Assembly (NCBI GenBank): GCA_963804955.1
Contig: CAWDSQ010000001.1
Location: 96,001-160,000 of the forward strand
DNA from: an uncultured delta proteobacterium
GTDB taxonomy: Bacteria; Desulfobacterota; WTBG01; CAIYCZ01; CAIRTM01
Direction: 5' to 3'
DNA length: 64,000 bases
A program made the position numbers and the translations under genes. The notes under the pieces are model-generated. The model was not told where the DNA came from. It saw only the letters and a program-made list of their open reading frames with translations, and searched no databases. Positions within the stretch are counted from its first letter, which is position 1. Every line of letters begins with the position of its first letter. Below are positions 37,040 to 45,200 of this stretch, in pieces.

Positions 37040-38527
37040 ATGAAACAGCGATCCTTCAGGATGTTTTCCAGTATGCTCTCGCTTACCGGCCTGTTCATTG
37101 CGGTTTTCAATATCGCACTGATAGTCGTTCTGTCGATTGCCGATGCCCTGTCCGCGGGCACACACCCGTATGCCGACCTGGTGATCTGGATCATGCTGCC
37201 GTGCGGCGTTTTGTTCGGCGCGGCCCTGATCATTGCCGGCATCCGGCGGCAGCGACGCACGAAAGGCGGGAGCCGCTTCCCGGTCATCGACCTTAACGAT
37301 ACCGGGCTGCGCAAAAAAGCGCTCGGCCTGCTGACGGTCCTGGTGCTGCTGTCGGTGCTCTATGCCTTTTCCGGGTATAAGGCCTATGAGTTTTCCGAAT
37401 CAAATACATTCTGCGGAGCCTGCCACACCGTGATGGGGCCTGAAACCAGGTCCAACGCCTACTCGCCACACGCACAGCTCCTGTGCACCAACTGCCACGT
37501 GGGGCCCGGGGCAAAGTACTATTTCATCTCCCATCTGAAAGGAGCCCGGGAGGGCTTCAATTACCTGCTCGACAGATACAGCCGGCCCCTTCATACGCCG
37601 ATTGCGGCCCTGCGTCCATCCGAGCATATATGCGAAAACTGTCACGGCCCCAAGTACCAGTTAAACGAGCGGCTTGAAAGCCGCACCTATTTCATGTCCG
37701 ACAAGGAGAATTCACGCAAGAAGATCAACCTGCTGTTTAAGCCGGGTAAAACGGACACCACGCTTGAGCAGCCGCCGAAAATGCACTGGCACTCAAGCAC
37801 CACGGCTGAAATCGAGTACGCCGATACTGACCCGAAGCGGATCGAGATTCCGTGGATTCGCGTCAAGCGGCTCGACGGAACCGTGCGCACCTACCGCCGC
37901 GACGACTCGAAGCTCTCGGACGACGACGCGGCAAAGGCCGGGACGAGGCGCATGGACTGCATGGACTGCCACAACCGGACGGGCCATCCCTTTAACCCCC
38001 CGGCGGCTATTCTGAACGCCATGCTCGGGGCGGGGTTCATTGATACGGGCCTGCCGGAGATTAAGCATGTCGGAGTCCAGACACTTGAAGCCTCCTATGC
38101 TTCCCAGGAGGAGGCAGCCAAAGGCATAGAAACGGCAATTCGTGACTTCTATCGCAAGGCCTATCCTGCTGTTGCAAAGGACAAGGAGGCGGCAATCACC
38201 TCAGCGATCACGGCGCTGCAGGGCGCCTACAGCCGCAACTACGACCCGCATATGAAGGTGAGCTGGCGCAGCTTTGGCAGCAATCAGGGGCATATGTATT
38301 CGCCGGGCTGCTTCCGCTGCCATGACGGCAAACACCGAAGCGATGACGGCGCTGTTCTGTCGCAGGACTGCAGCCTGTGCCACCTGCTGATCGAGCGTGT
38401 CCCCGGCCAGGATACTGCCGGAAGCAATCAGGCCGAGATCCGCGTGATGGATTATCCGCACCCCGTTGATATCGGCGACAGGTTGCAGACAATGATGTGT
38501 ACGAAATGCCACGGCCCATCATCGTGA
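37040..38527 (+). CDS. Membrane-anchored NapC/NirT-like heptaheme cytochrome c
   Basis: Three N-terminal hydrophobic helices; FCGACHTVM, CTNCHVGPG, CENCH, CMDCH, CFRCH, CSLCH, CTKCH. Confidence 0.9.
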   Translation: MKQRSFRMFSSMLSLTGLFIAVFNIALIVVLSIADALSAGTHPYADLVIWIMLPCGVLFGAALIIAGIRRQRRTKGGSRFPVIDLNDTGLRKKALGLLTVLVLLSVLYAFSGYKAYEFSESNTFCGACHTVMGPETRSNAYSPHAQLLCTNCHVGPGAKYYFISHLKGAREGFNYLLDRYSRPLHTPIAALRPSEHICENCHGPKYQLNERLESRTYFMSDKENSRKKINLLFKPGKTDTTLEQPPKMHWHSSTTAEIEYADTDPKRIEIPWIRVKRLDGTVRTYRRDDSKLSDDDAAKAGTRRMDCMDCHNRTGHPFNPPAAILNAMLGAGFIDTGLPEIKHVGVQTLEASYASQEEAAKGIETAIRDFYRKAYPAVAKDKEAAITSAITALQGAYSRNYDPHMKVSWRSFGSNQGHMYSPGCFRCHDGKHRSDDGAVLSQDCSLCHLLIERVPGQDTAGSNQAEIRVMDYPHPVDIGDRLQTMMCTKCHGPSS

Positions 38528-38591: not shown

Positions 38592-40780
38592 ATGAAAAAA
38601 AGCATACAACTTTGCATCATTGCCGCCGCAACACTGGCGAGCCTCCTTGCATGCTTCTTCGCCCCGGCGCCAGCCCCGGCTGAGGAGTCAAGCTGCTTAA
38701 CCTGCCACCTGTGCGGTCCCATGCTCGTCAAAAACCGCGGCGTGGCCACGCCCATAGTCTCGGCCATGCAGTCAGGGGCCGGCTGAGGCGGTGCCGTGGC
38801 TCAGTTGGAGCCGCACATAAAAGTGCTTGTTTCCCGGGAGTTTCTTGCCACCGCCCATGGTCAAATCGCGTGCGGAACCTGCCACGGCGGCGACGCTGCC
38901 AGCATGAGCAAAGCAGCCGCTCACAAGGGGATGGATGCATTTCCCTCCATAACCAATCCGCAGAATACCTGCGGCGCCTGCAAGGACCCGAAAGCGGCAC
39001 AGCACCGTGACATCGCCGCCTCGGCCAAAGATTCCCTGCACGCCAGCCTTGCCACCTTTACCGGGGTGCTCAAGAGCCGCGCGAATATGGAAAAATGGGA
39101 AACAATCGACGAGGCTCGCAAGAACCACTGCGCCGCCTGTCACACGAGCTGCGGCGGCTGTCATGTGAGCCGTCCCAAATCAGCGCAGAAGGGCTTTATT
39201 GCGGGGCATATCTTTAAAAAGACCCCCGATCAGGTCAATCAGTGCACCGCCTGCCACGGCAGCCGCGTGGGCTATGAATTTTCAGGCCAGCGCGGCAGGG
39301 GTGATATCCATGCGTCACAAGAGAGTATGACCTGCTCCTCCTGCCACAAGGCAAAAGAGATGCATGCTGCGGCAGCCAAAGACCTGCCGGGCCGCTATCA
39401 CCTGCCGGAGGCGGCGCGCTGCGATGATTGTCACAAAGATATGGAGAAAAAGGCCGTGCGGCAGCACGCCGATCATATCGGCAAGGTGCAATGCCAGGTG
39501 TGCCATTCGCAGACGTATGTCAACTGCTACAGTTGCCATGTGGGCAAAGACAGCCAGAACACGGCCTATTTCCAGAACCGTCTTGAAGTTGAAACCATGA
39601 AAATCGGGCTCAACTATGACGCTGCAGCTCCGGGCGCCGGCTACCGCTTCATGCTGGTGCGCCACGAGCCGTCGTATCCGGAGATGTTCGATTTCTACGG
39701 CAAGGATCTCTTCACGAACTTCGGCAAGGTGCCCACCTGGAAGCGGACCTCGCCTCACAACATCCAGAAACTCACCTGGCAGGCCGCCAGCTGCAACCAC
39801 TGCCACGCTAATCGCGAGCTGTTCCTTGCAAACGCCGATCTTGCAGACTATGAAATAGGCAGCAAACAAGGCGGTTGTTGTTCCCGACGCCGACATGCCG
39901 AAAGCGGTGCAAGACAGCAGCAAGCTTGACATCGACATATCCCGGGTCAGAACCGGCATGGTGGTTGACGCCCGGTGGCTGCATGACAACAGCAGGCAGA
40001 AGGATCTGGTCGTCATCGATGCCCGCAGCCGCGCTGCCTACGACAAGGGCCATATCGAAGGCGCCATTTCGCTGGACCCCCTGGTGAGCGGCCTGCGCAC
40101 CGGCCCCAAAGCGAAGAACCCCTTCTCGCTTGAAGACCATGCCAAGATTGCCGGCATTTTCGGCAGCAGGGGAATAGCAGCCGAAGATCATATCGTGGTG
40201 TATGACCAGAACGGCACCATGGCGGCAGGTCTGCTGTCTGTTCTGCAATGGGCCGGCGCTGCCAATGTCTCCTATTTGAACGGCGGCATTGAGGGGTGGC
40301 ATCTGGCCGGCTTCCACACGAGCACTGAGCCGTATACCCGTGAAGCGCGCACCTTCGGAGGAACCGTCAGGCCGGAGCTGGTCGTCAGCAGCGCAGAGCT
40401 TACCGGGCTTCTGAAAAAGAACACGGTGGTGCTTATCGATACTCGCGCCATTGATCGGGCCAGGGGACTGACACAACATGAGCTGGCCGGCCGTGCAGGC
40501 GCTATTGCCGGATCGGTCAATATCCCGCTCGGGGCTTTCTACATGGAAAACGGCTTTTTGAAGCAGCCGGTCCGAGCTGCTGTGGATGCTAGCCACCTAT
40601 GGCGTCACGCCGGACAAGACCGTCATCACCACCTGCGACACCGGCATTGCTGCCGCAGATGCCTTTTTCGTCCTTCGGTATCTTGGATTTTCCAACGCCC
40701 GGGTGCATGAAGAAGCCTGGGTGGTGTGGTCTAACACAGTGGATATGACGCCGCTTCAGTGCGGCAGTGGTATTTTTTAG
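38592..40780 (+). CDS. Putative selenocysteine-containing multiheme cytochrome c fused to tandem rhodanese (in-frame TGA 38784-38786; frameshifts near 39860 and 40570)
   Basis: Signal peptide + CLTCH, SGAG-TGA-GGAV in frame with 9 further CxxCH and one CGACK; rhodanese domains IDAR..YDKGHIEGA..YLNGGIEGW and CDTGIAA. Confidence 0.8.
38787..38816 (+). promoter_or_regulatory. Putative bacterial SECIS element
   Basis: GTGGCTC-AGTTG-GAGCCGC hairpin; loop begins after a 16-nt spacer from the TGA, with G at loop position 2. Confidence 0.7.
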
Positions 40781-41043: not shown

Positions 41044-42232
41044 ATGAAAACGAGCGTCGCAAAGACCGTGAGGACCACCCCTTTAAAATTATTACCCTTT
41101 TTCCTGATCGCAAGCCTGTTTACTAGTGCTTCCTTCGGGGTGCTCGAAAGAGCAGAAGGCGCCGGCCCTGCCGCCGCCGGACGTTGAGGTTATCGATGTG
41201 GTGCAGAAAGATGTGCCCATCCAGTCCGAGTGGATCGGCACGATCGACGGCATGGTGAACGCCACTATCAGGGCGCAGGTATCGGGCTATCTCATCAAGC
41301 AGAATTACAAGGAAGGCTCGCTGGTAAAAAAAGATGATGTGCTGTTTGAAATAGACCCCCGGCCGTTTCAGGCTGCCTTTGACCAGGCGCAGGCCGAGCT
41401 TGCGCAGCGGCAGGCCCTCTGGGGCACGTCAAAGGCCAATCTTGCGCGCATCCGGCCTCTGGCAAAGAAAAATGCCGTGAGCCAGAAAGACCTCGACGAT
41501 GCCGTGGGCGCTGAGCAGTCGCTGCAGGCCGGCGTTCTTGCGGCCAAAGCAGCTTTCGAAAAAGCGGCGCTTGATCTTGAATTTACAAAAATAAAATCAC
41601 CCATCGACGGCATTGCAGGCCTTGCCGCCGCACAGATCGGCAACCTCGTGGGGCCGCAAACCGCCGACCTCACCACGGTTTCCACGGTTGACCCGGTGAA
41701 GGTCTATGTGGCGATCAGCGAGCAGGAATACATGCGGTTCATGCAGGATAGCGCCCCGCACAGAACCCCTGGCGCTGGACCTTGTGCTGTGCCGACGGCA
41801 GCCTGTTTCCGCATAAGGGGAAAGTCGCTTTTGCCGACCGGCAGGTTGATGTGAAGACCGGGTCGATTCGCGTTGCCACCGAGTTTCCCAATCCCGGCAA
41901 TGTGCTGCGGCCGGGCCAGTATGCGAAGGTCAGGGCGTCCGTCAAAACGCGCACCGGCGCGCTGCTGGTGCCGCAGCGGGCGGTTGCCGACATGCAGGGC
42001 AGCTATCAGCTGGCCGTCGTCGGCAAGGACAATAAGGTGAGCGTGCGTCGCCGTGAAGGTGGCCGAGCGCATCGGCTCGCTCTGGATCATCAGCGAAGGC
42101 CTGCAGCCCGGCGACCGCGTGATCGTGGAAGGCATTCAGAAGGTCAAGGACGGCATGACGGTTGTGCCGAAACTTTCAGGCGACAGCCCTGCACCAGCGC
42201 CGGCGCCTGCGCCGGCACCCGACAAGAGGTAG
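41044..42232 (+). CDS. RND efflux periplasmic adaptor subunit (several frameshifts)
   Basis: Lipobox SGC; IRAQVSGYL, LFEIDPRPF, IKSPIDG, FPNP..LRPGQY, GLQPGDRVIVEG. Confidence 0.9.
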
Positions 42233-42238
42233 CCAGCC

Positions 42239-45200
42239 ATGTCAAAATTCTTCATCAATCGCCCTATTGTGGCCATGGTTATCTCGATCTTCATGGTCAT
42301 CCTCGGCGCTGTGGCCATGTCGGGACTTCCCATCGCCCAGTTTCCCAACATTGTTCCGCCGGCTATCCAGGTGAATGCCGTCTACACCGGCGCCGACGCC
42401 GTCACCGTGGAGCAGTCGGTGGCTACCCCGATCGAGCAGCAGATGTCCGGCGTTGACAATCTGGACTACATGTACTCCGTCAATGCCAACGACGGTTCCA
42501 TGACCCTCTATAACTACTTCGAACTGGGGACCAACGCCAACACCGACCAGATCCTCTCCCAGATGCGCCAGAACCAGGCGTCATCGCAACTGCCGGCCGA
42601 TGTCAACAACTACGGTGTTACGGTGGCGAAATCGACCTCGGCGCCGTACCTCATGTTCGCTCTCTCTTCTCCCAACAACACCTACGACAACGTCTTTCTG
42701 GCCAACTACTCCTACATCAACATCAACGACCAGATGACCCGCATCAAGGGGGTCGCCAGCGTCTCGGTCTTCGGCGCCGGCCAGTACGCCATGCGGTATC
42801 TGGGTCCGGCCGGACCAGCTTGCCAAGCTCAACATCACCATCCCGGAGATCATGAACGCGGTCAAGGCCCAGAATACCGTCAACCCGGCCGGACAGGTCG
42901 GGAGCCAGCCGGTGCCGAAGGGGCAGGAGTTCACCTACACGGTTCGCGCCCAGGGGCGTCTGCAGAGCGAGGCCGAGTTCGGCAATATCGTGCTGCGGGC
43001 CAATCCGGACGGTTCCATCGTGCGGGTGAAGGACGTGGCCCGCATCGAGCTTGGGGCACAGAACTACAAACAGGAAGGGCGCCTCAACGGCAAGCCCTGC
43101 GCCCTGGTCGCCCTGTACCAGATGCCGGGAACCAACGCCATGGAATCGGCCAACGGCGCCAAGAAACTGATGGATGGAGTTGAAGAAGAGCTTCCCGCCT
43201 GACCTGGACTACACGGTGGCGCTGGACACCACCCTGGCGGTCTCCGAAGGGATAAAGGAAATCAAGAGCACCTTCTTCGAGGCGCTGATTCTGGTCATCC
43301 TGGTGGTCTTTATCTTCCTCCAGGGGTGGCGGGCCACGCTGATCCCGCTCCTGGCGGTGCCGGTGTCGCTGGTGGGAACCTTCGCGCTCTTCCCGCTGCT
43401 CGGCTTTTCCATCAACACCCTCTCGCTTTTCGGGATGGTCCTTGCCATCGGCCTGGTCGTGGATGACGCCATTGTCGTGGTCGAGGCGGTGGAGCATCAT
43501 ATCGAAAAAGGCCTGAGCCCGAAGGATGCCACGTTCAAGGCCATGGAGGAGGTGTCCGGCCCGGTCATCGCCATCGCCATCATCCTGGCGGCGGTCTTCG
43601 TGCCGACGGCCTTCATCCCCGGCATTACCGGCCAGCTTTACCAGCAGTTCGCCGTGACCATCGCCGTCTCGGTCATCATTTCGGCCTTCAACGCCCTCAC
43701 CCTTTCTCCGGCGCTCTGTGCACTGCTGCTGAAGCCGAAGGTCAAGGGAACCGGCCCGCTGCAGAAGTTCTACGACTGGTTCAACCGGGTCTTCGGCCGG
43801 GCCACCGACGGCTACGTGTCAATCTGCGGCGCCGCCATCAGGAAAAGCAAGACCAGTCTGCTCCTGCTGCTCGGGGTGACCGTCCTGGCCGGGGTAGCGG
43901 GTAAGAGCCATTCCGACCGGCTTCCTCCCCGACGAGGACCAGGGCTTTATCTTCGCCAATATCCAGCTCCCCAATTCCGCTTCGCTGCAGCGGACCAGTG
44001 AAGTGGCCCGTCAGGCCGAAGAGATCATCATGAAAACCCCGGGCGTCCAGTACTGTTCGACGATTCTCGGCTACAGCCTGCTGAGCCAGGTCAGCTAACA
44101 CCTACAGCGCCTTTTTCTTCATCTCCCTGAAAGAGTGGAAGGAGCGGAAAGCTCCGGAAGAGCAGTACGAGGCGATCAAGGCCTCCCTGACGAAAAAGAT
44201 GGGCGGGCTGCCGGGCGCCATCGGCTTCCCGTTCCCGCCACCGGCCATCATGGGGATCGGCACCTCGGGCGGGGCCACCTTCATGCTGCAGGACAAGGCC
44301 GGCAAGGATGTCGCCTTCCTGGCCGAGAACACGCAGAAATTCATCGAAGCGGCCAGGAAAAGGCCTGAACTGGCCCGGGTCACCACCACCTTCATCCCCA
44401 CCGTGCCGCAGCTGTTCGTGGATGTGGACCGGGACAAGGTGCTGAAGCAGGGGGTTGAGATCAGCGACGTCTACAAGGTCCTGCAGAGCTTCATGGGGAG
44501 CGGTTTCATCAACTACTTCAACAAATTCGGCCGCCAGTGGCAGACCTATATCCAGGCCGAGGGGGACTACCGGACCAATATCGAGAATATCGGCCAGTTC
44601 TATGTGCGCAACAAGGACGGGCAATCAGTGCCCCTCTCGGCGCTGACTTCGGTTCGCAGCATCACCGGCCCGGAATTCACCATGCGCTTCAACCTCTACC
44701 GCTCGGCCCAGATCAACGCCACCGCGGCCCCCGGCTTCAGTTCGGCCCAGGCCATGAAGGCGCTGGAAGAGACCTTTGCCCAGACCATGCCGCGGGAGAT
44801 GGGGTACGACTACAGCGGCATGTCGTTCCAGGAGAAGAAGGCCCAGAAGGGGGTCTCGCCGATGGCGATCTTCGCCTTCTCGTTCCTGTGCGTCTTCCTG
44901 ATCCTGGCGGCCCAGTACGAAAGCTGGTCGCTGCCGTTCTCGGTCCTGCTGGGAACGCCGGTGGCCGTGGCCGGAGCCTTCGCCGGCCTGCTCTTCGGAA
45001 AATTCGAGAACAACATCTACGCCCAGATCGGTCTGGTCATGCTGATCGGCCTGGCGGCCAAGAACGCCATCCTCATCGTCGAATTCGCCAAGATGGAGTA
45101 TGAGAAGGGCAAACCGCTGGTGGAAGCGACCCTGGAGGGCGCCAGGCTGCGCTTGCGGCCGATCCTGATGACCTCCTTCGCCTTCATCCTCGGCTGCGTG

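Follow-up and report, generated by a model that had tools for sequence, protein, structure and literature searches.

A probable selenocysteine-containing multiheme cytochrome with fused rhodanese domains, encoded across an in-frame UGA in an uncultured delta proteobacterium

Does the TGA at positions 38784-38786 of the DNA analysed here close a short gene, or is it decoded as selenocysteine (Sec) within a much longer one? The DNA, referred to as the window, is a stretch of 64,000 nucleotides from an uncultured delta proteobacterium (assembly GCA_963804955.1, contig CAWDSQ010000001.1, positions 96,001 to 160,000), and the gene parts described below, like the gene upstream of them, lie on its + strand. 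An earlier note, made from the sequence alone, had suggested that the UGA encodes Sec in a Gly-rich loop of an exported cytochrome. According to our analysis, the interval 38592-40780 very probably represents one gene for a periplasmic selenoprotein, in which the UGA at 38784 would be recoded as Sec. Its predicted product is composed of a signal peptide, a module holding heme 1, the loop G-A-G-U-G-G, ten more c-type hemes, which brings their number to 11, and two C-terminal rhodanese domains.

In regard to the layout of the locus, the ATG at 38592, with AAGGGA upstream of it, opens a frame of 64 codons for which the list of open reading frames (ORFs) and its translation give TGA 38784-38786 as the stop. 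The encoded segment (38592-38783), conserved in frame in related loci, starts with MKKS, continues through a hydrophobic stretch and APAPAEE to the first heme motif, CLTCH (residues 35-39, nucleotides 38694-38708), and ends in ...SAMQSGAG directly before the TGA. Its first 29 residues or so, ending at APAPA/EE, read as a signal peptide when judged by eye. Past the TGA, the same frame carries on with GGAVAQLEPHIKVLV and includes ten further heme-binding motifs. The start chosen by the gene caller for this multiheme ORF is GTG 38796, located 68 codons from 38592, and the ORF starting there has no signal peptide. This arrangement had been described in the earlier note, and the translation agrees with it throughout.

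The codon itself was followed through 88 stretches, comprising 80 loci from species-representative genomes, seven loci from relatives and the window. In 85 of them, a signal peptide and a CxxCH are succeeded by the motif G-x-G-stop-G-G-x-[VLI]-x-[PQ]-L, and the stop within the motif is TGA in every one of these 85, never TAA or TAG. The putative Sec of the window protein, residue 65, belongs to the invariant G-x-G-U-G-G of this motif. A read-through search of six related genomes found exactly one TGA in each of seven strong matches, and none in two weak partial matches. Database homologs tell the same boundary from the other side, as the 17 that were aligned (of 120 listed) all start with M/V-A-P-L-E-P right after the TGA position and are devoid of a signal peptide. 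Furthermore, a profile of 97 positions representing the N-terminal module hit 227 cluster representatives (50% identity) at E ≤ 0.001. Among the best 150 of these 227, checked by hmmalign, 92 begin directly past the Sec site and 58 span it, and 25 of the site-spanning proteins hold Cys at the Sec column (GGCGG, GEGCGG and similar). A word-indexed search with residues 25-115 matched only the window's own protein and is uninformative on Cys forms. Alignment of homologs had been proposed as a check in the earlier note, and the similarity is indeed continuous across the junction, with TGA in the motif-bearing stretches and Cys in 25 database relatives.

The base could also be compared with independent data, since Logan contigs of four public runs were aligned to the window, three of them from DNA (X1, X2 and X3) and one from RNA (X20). 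The source sample itself is not among them, and the best run shares 0.32 of the window's words. Record 1 of X1, from a related strain, spans 38619-38980, and none of its eight differences, all of which are listed, falls at 38784-38786, so this contig reads TGA as well. Taken with the conservation described above, the reading of TGA 38784-38786 as Sec appears strongly supported.

Downstream of the codon, a candidate selenocysteine insertion sequence (SECIS) is found at 38796-38814, built as the earlier note had drawn it. The stem pairs GTGGCTC (38796-38802) with GAGCCGC (38808-38814) over 7 bp, one of them G-U, and encloses the loop AGTTG (38803-38807; AGUUG in the RNA) with G at its second position. 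The stem begins 12 nt downstream of the UGA, and the distance from TGA to the loop is 16 nt. An extension of the stem by GTGC/GCAC, also put forward at that time, did not hold, as these bases compete with the stem instead of lengthening it. In most relatives, the hairpin consists of an 8-bp stem and a GUU loop located 17 nt past the UGA (alignment columns 19-26 paired with 30-37). Both forms agree with the description of bacterial SECIS elements, in which a G is present at the first or second position of the loop, 16-37 nt from the UGA (PMC13188914; this and the other papers cited below are represented by parts of their text).

The conservation of this structure was evaluated on 77 distinct sequences. 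Pairing is retained in 94.0% of the stem cells, compared with 37-49% in slid controls, double-sided changes occur at five of the eight stem pairs (16 cells), and none of 500 shuffles attains any of five conservation measures of the stem. An example of compensation is the change from GCU to GUU (Ala to Val), accompanied in 10 sequences by the synonymous change from GAG to GAA on the opposite side. Four sequences with PLAP or PLGP possess a shifted hairpin instead. The significance of the hairpin is derived from its conservation and from compensatory changes, and not from the fold of the window alone.

Several observations nevertheless weigh against a recoded UGA in this position. The motif is absent from three of the 88 stretches, L082, L085 and L088, whose matches start at query residues 156, 200 and 100, respectively. 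L082 begins at the end of a contig; for L085 and L088 the upstream DNA is present, and the motif was not found there. Of the 58 site-spanning proteins, 33, mostly remoter ones, carry another residue or a gap at the Sec column, so the Sec/Cys residue is not universal across the wider superfamily. L024, 73% identical, has an extra in-frame TAA nine codons past the TGA (PLEP#EKVLV, L024:2654-2704), being probably a pseudogene or an assembly error. Contigs of X2 and X20 overlap the TGA too, and because their differences are listed only partly, X1 alone was counted for the TGA base. As for the hairpin, the 47-nt fold of the window is unexceptional (z = -1.12, with 27 of 200 shuffles at least as stable) and the top pair of the stem is lost (CAG for CCG), as likewise happens in 4 of the 77 sequences; the minimum-energy fold of the window retains only 5 bp of the proposed stem.

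Concerning the 3' extent, the gene is predicted to run past 39929, through both rhodanese domains, to the TAG at 40778-40780. Database homologs of about 640 amino acids combine the cytochrome with two rhodanese domains, and the read-through genes at related loci encode 709-733 amino acids. When the frames of the window were mapped by tblastn with L012, the closest full-length relative (76% identical), three pieces were obtained: 38592-39854 in frame 1, 39862-40569 in frame 2 and 40556-40738 in frame 3. The cytochrome domain with heme motifs 2-11 (38787-39854) is succeeded by a first frameshift, from frame 1 to frame 2 (39855-39858), and by a frame 2 segment with a linker, the first rhodanese domain and most of the second (39862-40569). 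There, the ORF 39895-40710 matches the rhodanese model PF00581 with E 5e-22 (78.7 bits against 22.2). A second frameshift, from frame 2 to frame 3 (40569-40571), leads into the end of the second rhodanese domain (40572-40780). This last part includes the putative catalytic Cys in TTCDTG (codon 40634-40636), which aligns with full-length relatives.

Two frameshifts within 720 nt of one gene give some room to the alternative that survives best, according to which the family does consist of selenoproteins and the window copy is a pseudogene, its rhodanese domains severed by two real 1-bp insertions. We consider this unlikely. Every one of the three DNA runs has contigs, 90-99% identical to the window, in which a single base is missing at 39856 or 39858 and another at 40569 or 40571, and no further stop or decay is present in any of the three frame pieces. 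In addition, the RND-type periplasmic adaptor gene downstream (41126-42456) is split into the overlapping ORFs 41126-41854 and 41782-42456 in a way that resembles another 1-bp indel and points to assembly error. Because the three DNA runs lack both bases and the adjoining adaptor gene is similarly broken, it is most likely that the two insertions in the rhodanese part arose in the assembly. On the other hand, since none of the runs comes from the source sample, the frameshifts could be real in the source strain, which counts against an intact gene.

If the UGA is read through in an intact gene, it could still be decoded as something other than Sec, namely as Trp, Cys, Gly or Arg, via near-cognate decoding or a changed code. 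At the aligned column, four database proteins indeed carry W, one G, three R and four S. The proteins with W (P0149, P0164, P0196, P0262), G (P0138) and R (P0131, P0139, P0148) have the GEG-x-GG-like motif otherwise intact, and these residues may either stem from gene calling under other genetic codes or be genuine replacements. The genetic code of the window is standard, though, because the upstream gene stops with TGA 38525-38527 and 26 of 77 relatives end on TGA, the terminators of the family genes being TAA in 39, TGA in 26 and TAG in 12. Besides, the hairpin is conserved at the SECIS distance, and the complete Sec machinery, which the earlier note had recommended looking for, is present in the same genome. 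It comprises selA on contig 25 (383 bits), selB on contig 11 (345 bits, cut-off 242), selD on contig 28 (positions 1709-2632, L100; 334 bits) and a gene for tRNA-Sec on contig 25 near selA (76.7 bits, cut-off 47), all four above the curated cut-offs. The selD gene contains one in-frame TGA, and its product is probably a selenoprotein itself. Decoding of the UGA as an amino acid other than Sec is therefore, in our estimate, quite improbable.

Only marginally less probable than that is a true stop, with a 64-amino acid monoheme pre-protein and a separate multiheme protein arising from two genes. This is how gene callers annotate the locus in every database entry seen, a splitting that the earlier note had expected of standard callers, and the TGAGG preceding GTG 38796 could pass as a ribosome-binding site. 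However, the downstream product would be left without an export signal, even though the attachment of c-type hemes takes place outside the cytoplasm. In addition, neither the frame nor the spacing varies across the site, the exclusive use of TGA in the motif differs from the mix of TAA, TGA and TAG at the real ends of the family genes, the Cys forms continue across the site, and synonymous positions downstream are constrained by the hairpin, all of which speaks for a single gene read through with Sec.

An error of base calling or assembly as the origin of the TGA is hardly credible. The window does hold several 1-bp indels, but to create the codon a substitution and not an indel would be needed, and 84 other stretches as well as an independent contig have the same codon. 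The earlier note had set the TGA apart as a clean codon, unlike the 1-bp indels elsewhere in the window. The X1 contig agrees with the clean codon, while the distinction from the indels stands only in part, given that two of them (~39856-39858 and ~40569-40571) affect the same gene. Among the contigs of the sediment metatranscriptome X20, record 17 (38709-38858, six differences, ~96% identity) extends, in a close relative, over both the UGA and the hairpin. It gives a weak hint of one RNA across the junction, originating from a relative and possibly from DNA carry-over.

What kind of cytochrome is encoded around the recoded UGA? Pfam recognises only generic multiheme domains in the cytochrome part, and all NCBIfam models remain below their cut-offs, with ExtM (20 bits against 800) and TIGR04315 (19.2 bits against 375) as the best hits. 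Across 30 diverse members, the family has 11 heme motifs, ten invariant His residues outside the motifs and, besides the Sec column, no invariant free Cys. Ten such His residues for 11 hemes would be in line with a protein in which the distal site of one heme is open or has a ligand other than His. A model produced by AlphaFold2 (AF2) from 122 sequences has pLDDT 90.8 and pTM 0.87, with pLDDT of about 74 near the Sec loop; an AF2 model from 30 sequences (pLDDT 52.7) was discarded. When this structure was compared with all representative chains, the Shewanella octaheme tetrathionate reductase (OTR; 1sp3_A) was found with Z 9.0 and a root-mean-square deviation of 4.2 over 245 residues (model residues 67-396), well apart from the runner-up at Z 4.7. 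Foldseek returned nothing from the PDB at E ≤ 0.001, its best hit being the same 1sp3 with E 0.017. By sequence, phmmer gave two chance-level hits among PDB chains, and with a profile there were 29 hits at E ≤ 10, with no OTR or MccSep chain among them (the presence of MccSep in that set was unchecked). The best of these profile hits were NrfA chains (~1e-3), matched over hemes 2-3.

A closer relationship became visible at the level of family profiles. Alignment of the family with 12 bona fide OTR-family genes of the same phylum by hhalign resulted in a probability of 97.8%, with E 7.5e-13 over 179 columns. The heme motifs 3-9 of the family are paired with the OTR motifs 1-7, and heme 4 (HCAACH) falls on OTR heme 2, which we take to be the catalytic, Lys-ligated heme. 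The cytochrome core is, on the strength of profile and modelled structure, homologous to OTR, and the segment comprising heme 1, the Sec loop and heme 2 is best described as an N-terminal addition to the OTR-like core.

OTR-family proteins have selenoprotein forms of their own. Among the matches above the TIGR04315 cut-off in 301 genomes of the phylum, one TGA occurs in 20 of 47, and the window's own genome has no TIGR04315 match at E ≤ 1e-20. At the 12 loci, Sec (4, namely L119, L121, L124 and L125) or Cys (8) is found in NNF-[U/C]-I, 14 residues before heme 2. We presume that the Cys of this motif is the active-site Cys, and that a Gly-Lys stretch upstream of the motif provides the Lys heme ligand of OTR. 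In the hhalign alignment, the OTR Sec/Cys column corresponds to Glu in the family of the window, and the Gly-Lys stretch lies in a gap, so the predicted Sec site is distinct from that of OTR. Likenesses between the two families comprise the homologous core, the sole clear structural match and the existence of selenoprotein forms. Differences include the number of hemes (8 in OTR, 11 here), the extra N-terminal module with heme 1, the GxGUGG loop and heme 2, which OTR does not have, and the C-terminal rhodanese domains, which are fused here and were not seen among the OTR-family loci read. OTR itself is described as a catalytic multiheme cytochrome of the periplasm that acts on oxyanions of sulfur and nitrogen (PMC13510729), and TIGR04315 is listed as a GenBank-annotated selenoprotein (PMC13188914). 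From the alignment, the family of the window would belong among the Sec-containing catalytic multiheme cytochromes of the OTR superfamily, with a Sec site different from that of OTR.

One peculiarity was observed in the third heme motif (38970-39005), for which the window and its three nearest loci, L012-L014, have CGACKDPKAAQH, compared with a plain CxxCH in 80 of 83 loci. It could be either a CxxCK motif, as occurs in NrfA, or a CxxCH whose second Cys and His are separated by seven inserted residues, and the hhalign alignment follows the latter.

To our knowledge, MccSep is the only Sec-containing multiheme cytochrome to have been characterised, which took place in August 2026. MccSep (ExtKL, GSU2937-2936) of Geobacter sulfurreducens is a pentaheme periplasmic Sec-dependent polysulfide reductase, whose U325 is positioned in a D-G-U-P loop of an immunoglobulin-like (Ig-like) C-terminal domain, about 100 residues from the C-terminus and next to a His/Cys-ligated heme (PMC13510729). 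The Geobacter gene cluster also includes the rhodanese-like ExtH (PMC5877670). The window protein shares with MccSep the nature of a periplasmic multiheme cytochrome c with a single Sec, the common annotation as two genes and a rhodanese-like protein nearby. In architecture the two differ, as MccSep has five CxxCH motifs followed by a C-terminal Sec in the Ig-like domain, while here Sec 65 precedes ten of the 11 motifs and lies in G-x-G-U-G-G, with no invariant free Cys. The model NF040886 (cut-off 250 bits) gave no hit for the query proteins P0001 and P0004 at E ≤ 0.01, and no match at the window locus; its best hits in the genome are elsewhere and do not exceed 33 bits. Because of the missing NF040886 match and the different architecture, the window protein is regarded as an analogue and not as a member of MccSep. 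Still, the action of Sec and a catalytic heme on S-S bonds in MccSep (PMC13510729) is the best working model for its chemistry.

Rhodanese domains are known from other selenoproteins as well. The rhodanese-domain selenoproteins listed in the part of PMC13188914 covered here (PF00581 forms 1-5 and a COG2897/SseA form) have the motifs UxxS, UxxG, CxU and UxxxxU. They resemble the window protein in having a rhodanese domain within a selenoprotein and, when compared by these listed motifs only, differ in that here the rhodanese Cys is kept in TTCDTG and the Sec is located in the cytochrome part. In a second subfamily, about 38% identical, the cytochrome has a lipoprotein-type signal, no rhodanese fusion and the GEG-U-GG motif retained, and a tandem-rhodanese gene is situated directly downstream at six of seven loci. 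At the sole unfused locus without it, L005 (514-1377), a gene of the metallo-beta-lactamase fold occupies that place. That the two are fused in one branch and encoded side by side in the other speaks for a joint function of cytochrome and rhodanese.

On the upstream side, 64 nt before ATG 38592, an NrfH-like gene is found (37040-38527, with the TGA stop mentioned above), coding for a predicted membrane-anchored multiheme cytochrome of the NapC/NirT/NrfH type. It passes PF03264 (28.7 bits against 24.1) and remains below TIGR03153 (39.7, cut-off 134.2) and TIGR02161 (19.8, cut-off 310.6), and with 495 amino acids it is much longer than NrfH. Homologs of this cytochrome are present within flanks of up to 2.5 kb at 21 of 87 loci. 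For the three closest loci the position is directly upstream, and in 18 more a homolog of 30% identity is located just downstream on the opposite strand. It is likely to be the quinol-oxidising electron donor.

A mechanism can be proposed for such a set of components. Following recoding of UGA 38784 as Sec through the hairpin and SelA, SelB, SelD and tRNA-Sec, electrons could pass from the quinol pool through the NrfH-like upstream cytochrome into the heme chain. The rhodanese Cys of TTCDTG (40634-40636) would pick up sulfur (or selenium) species as a persulfide and hand them over. The catalytic heme, at which the Sec would act as a nucleophile, is probably heme 4, which corresponds to the active-site heme of OTR. 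An S-S (or S-Se) bond of polysulfide, thiosulfate or tetrathionate would thereby be cleaved reductively, in a combination of Sec and heme chemistry resembling that shown for MccSep. As a tentative extension, for which we would not claim even odds, the G-x-G-U-G-G loop may be seated in the distal pocket of heme 4, replacing the Lys/Cys pair of OTR, with Sec as an axial ligand (a His/selenolate heme) or as an adjacent nucleophile. The protein would in that case be a molybdenum-free respiratory reductase of polysulfide, thiosulfate, tetrathionate or selenite, fed by the fused rhodanese and the NrfH-like quinol dehydrogenase, and would constitute a second independently evolved selenium-heme sulfur reductase beside MccSep, with a wide distribution among anaerobes that includes Desulfobacterota and Nitrospirota. 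Which substrate is used, in which direction the reaction runs and where the Sec lies relative to the hemes are points that we infer, and to this extent they weaken the functional interpretation.

Literature searches on selenocysteine in multiheme cytochromes and rhodanese proteins, with the supplements of the relevant papers outside their scope, yielded no description of this family. It was likewise not found by a term search of the selenoprotein tables in the parts of PMC13188914 and PMC9312934 that were covered. In the text of PMC13188914 (2026) covered here, 'cytochrome' occurs three times and accounts for two table rows, ExtKL and octaheme TIGR04315, with a third row, the GSU2204 family, containing CXXCH. 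The corresponding part of PMC9312934 (2022) lists one 'cytochrome c family protein', probably ExtKL judging by the row in the 2026 review. Cytochromes are not mentioned in the main text, as covered here, of Peng 2016 (PMC5029168) and Zhang 2008 (PMC2398784), whose supplements, like those of the MccSep paper, may list the family.

The database entries seen for the family are all cut at the UGA, leaving a signal-less cytochrome or a 'rhodanese-like protein' and losing the first short ORF; among the names given to the cut products are 'rhodanese-like domain-containing protein' and '3-mercaptopyruvate sulfurtransferase SseA'. Relatives are encoded by at least 107 species-representative genomes, and because their entries are cut in this way, many genomes are mis-annotated at a gene that is probably relevant to respiration. 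If the reading presented here is true, the recruitment of selenium to heme-based sulfur enzymes has happened separately on at least three occasions, namely for MccSep, for OTR proper and for the family of the window, where the rhodanese fusion offers a direct hint of the substrate route. The family could be a candidate for molybdenum-free respiration or disproportionation of sulfur compounds in syntrophic and sulfur-cycling anaerobes. As to its distribution, one member, L075, was located on a 5-kb contig (JAIWHJ010000168.1, coverage 0.43) binned as a Promethearchaeota archaeon, and faulty binning is likelier here than a copy in an archaeon.

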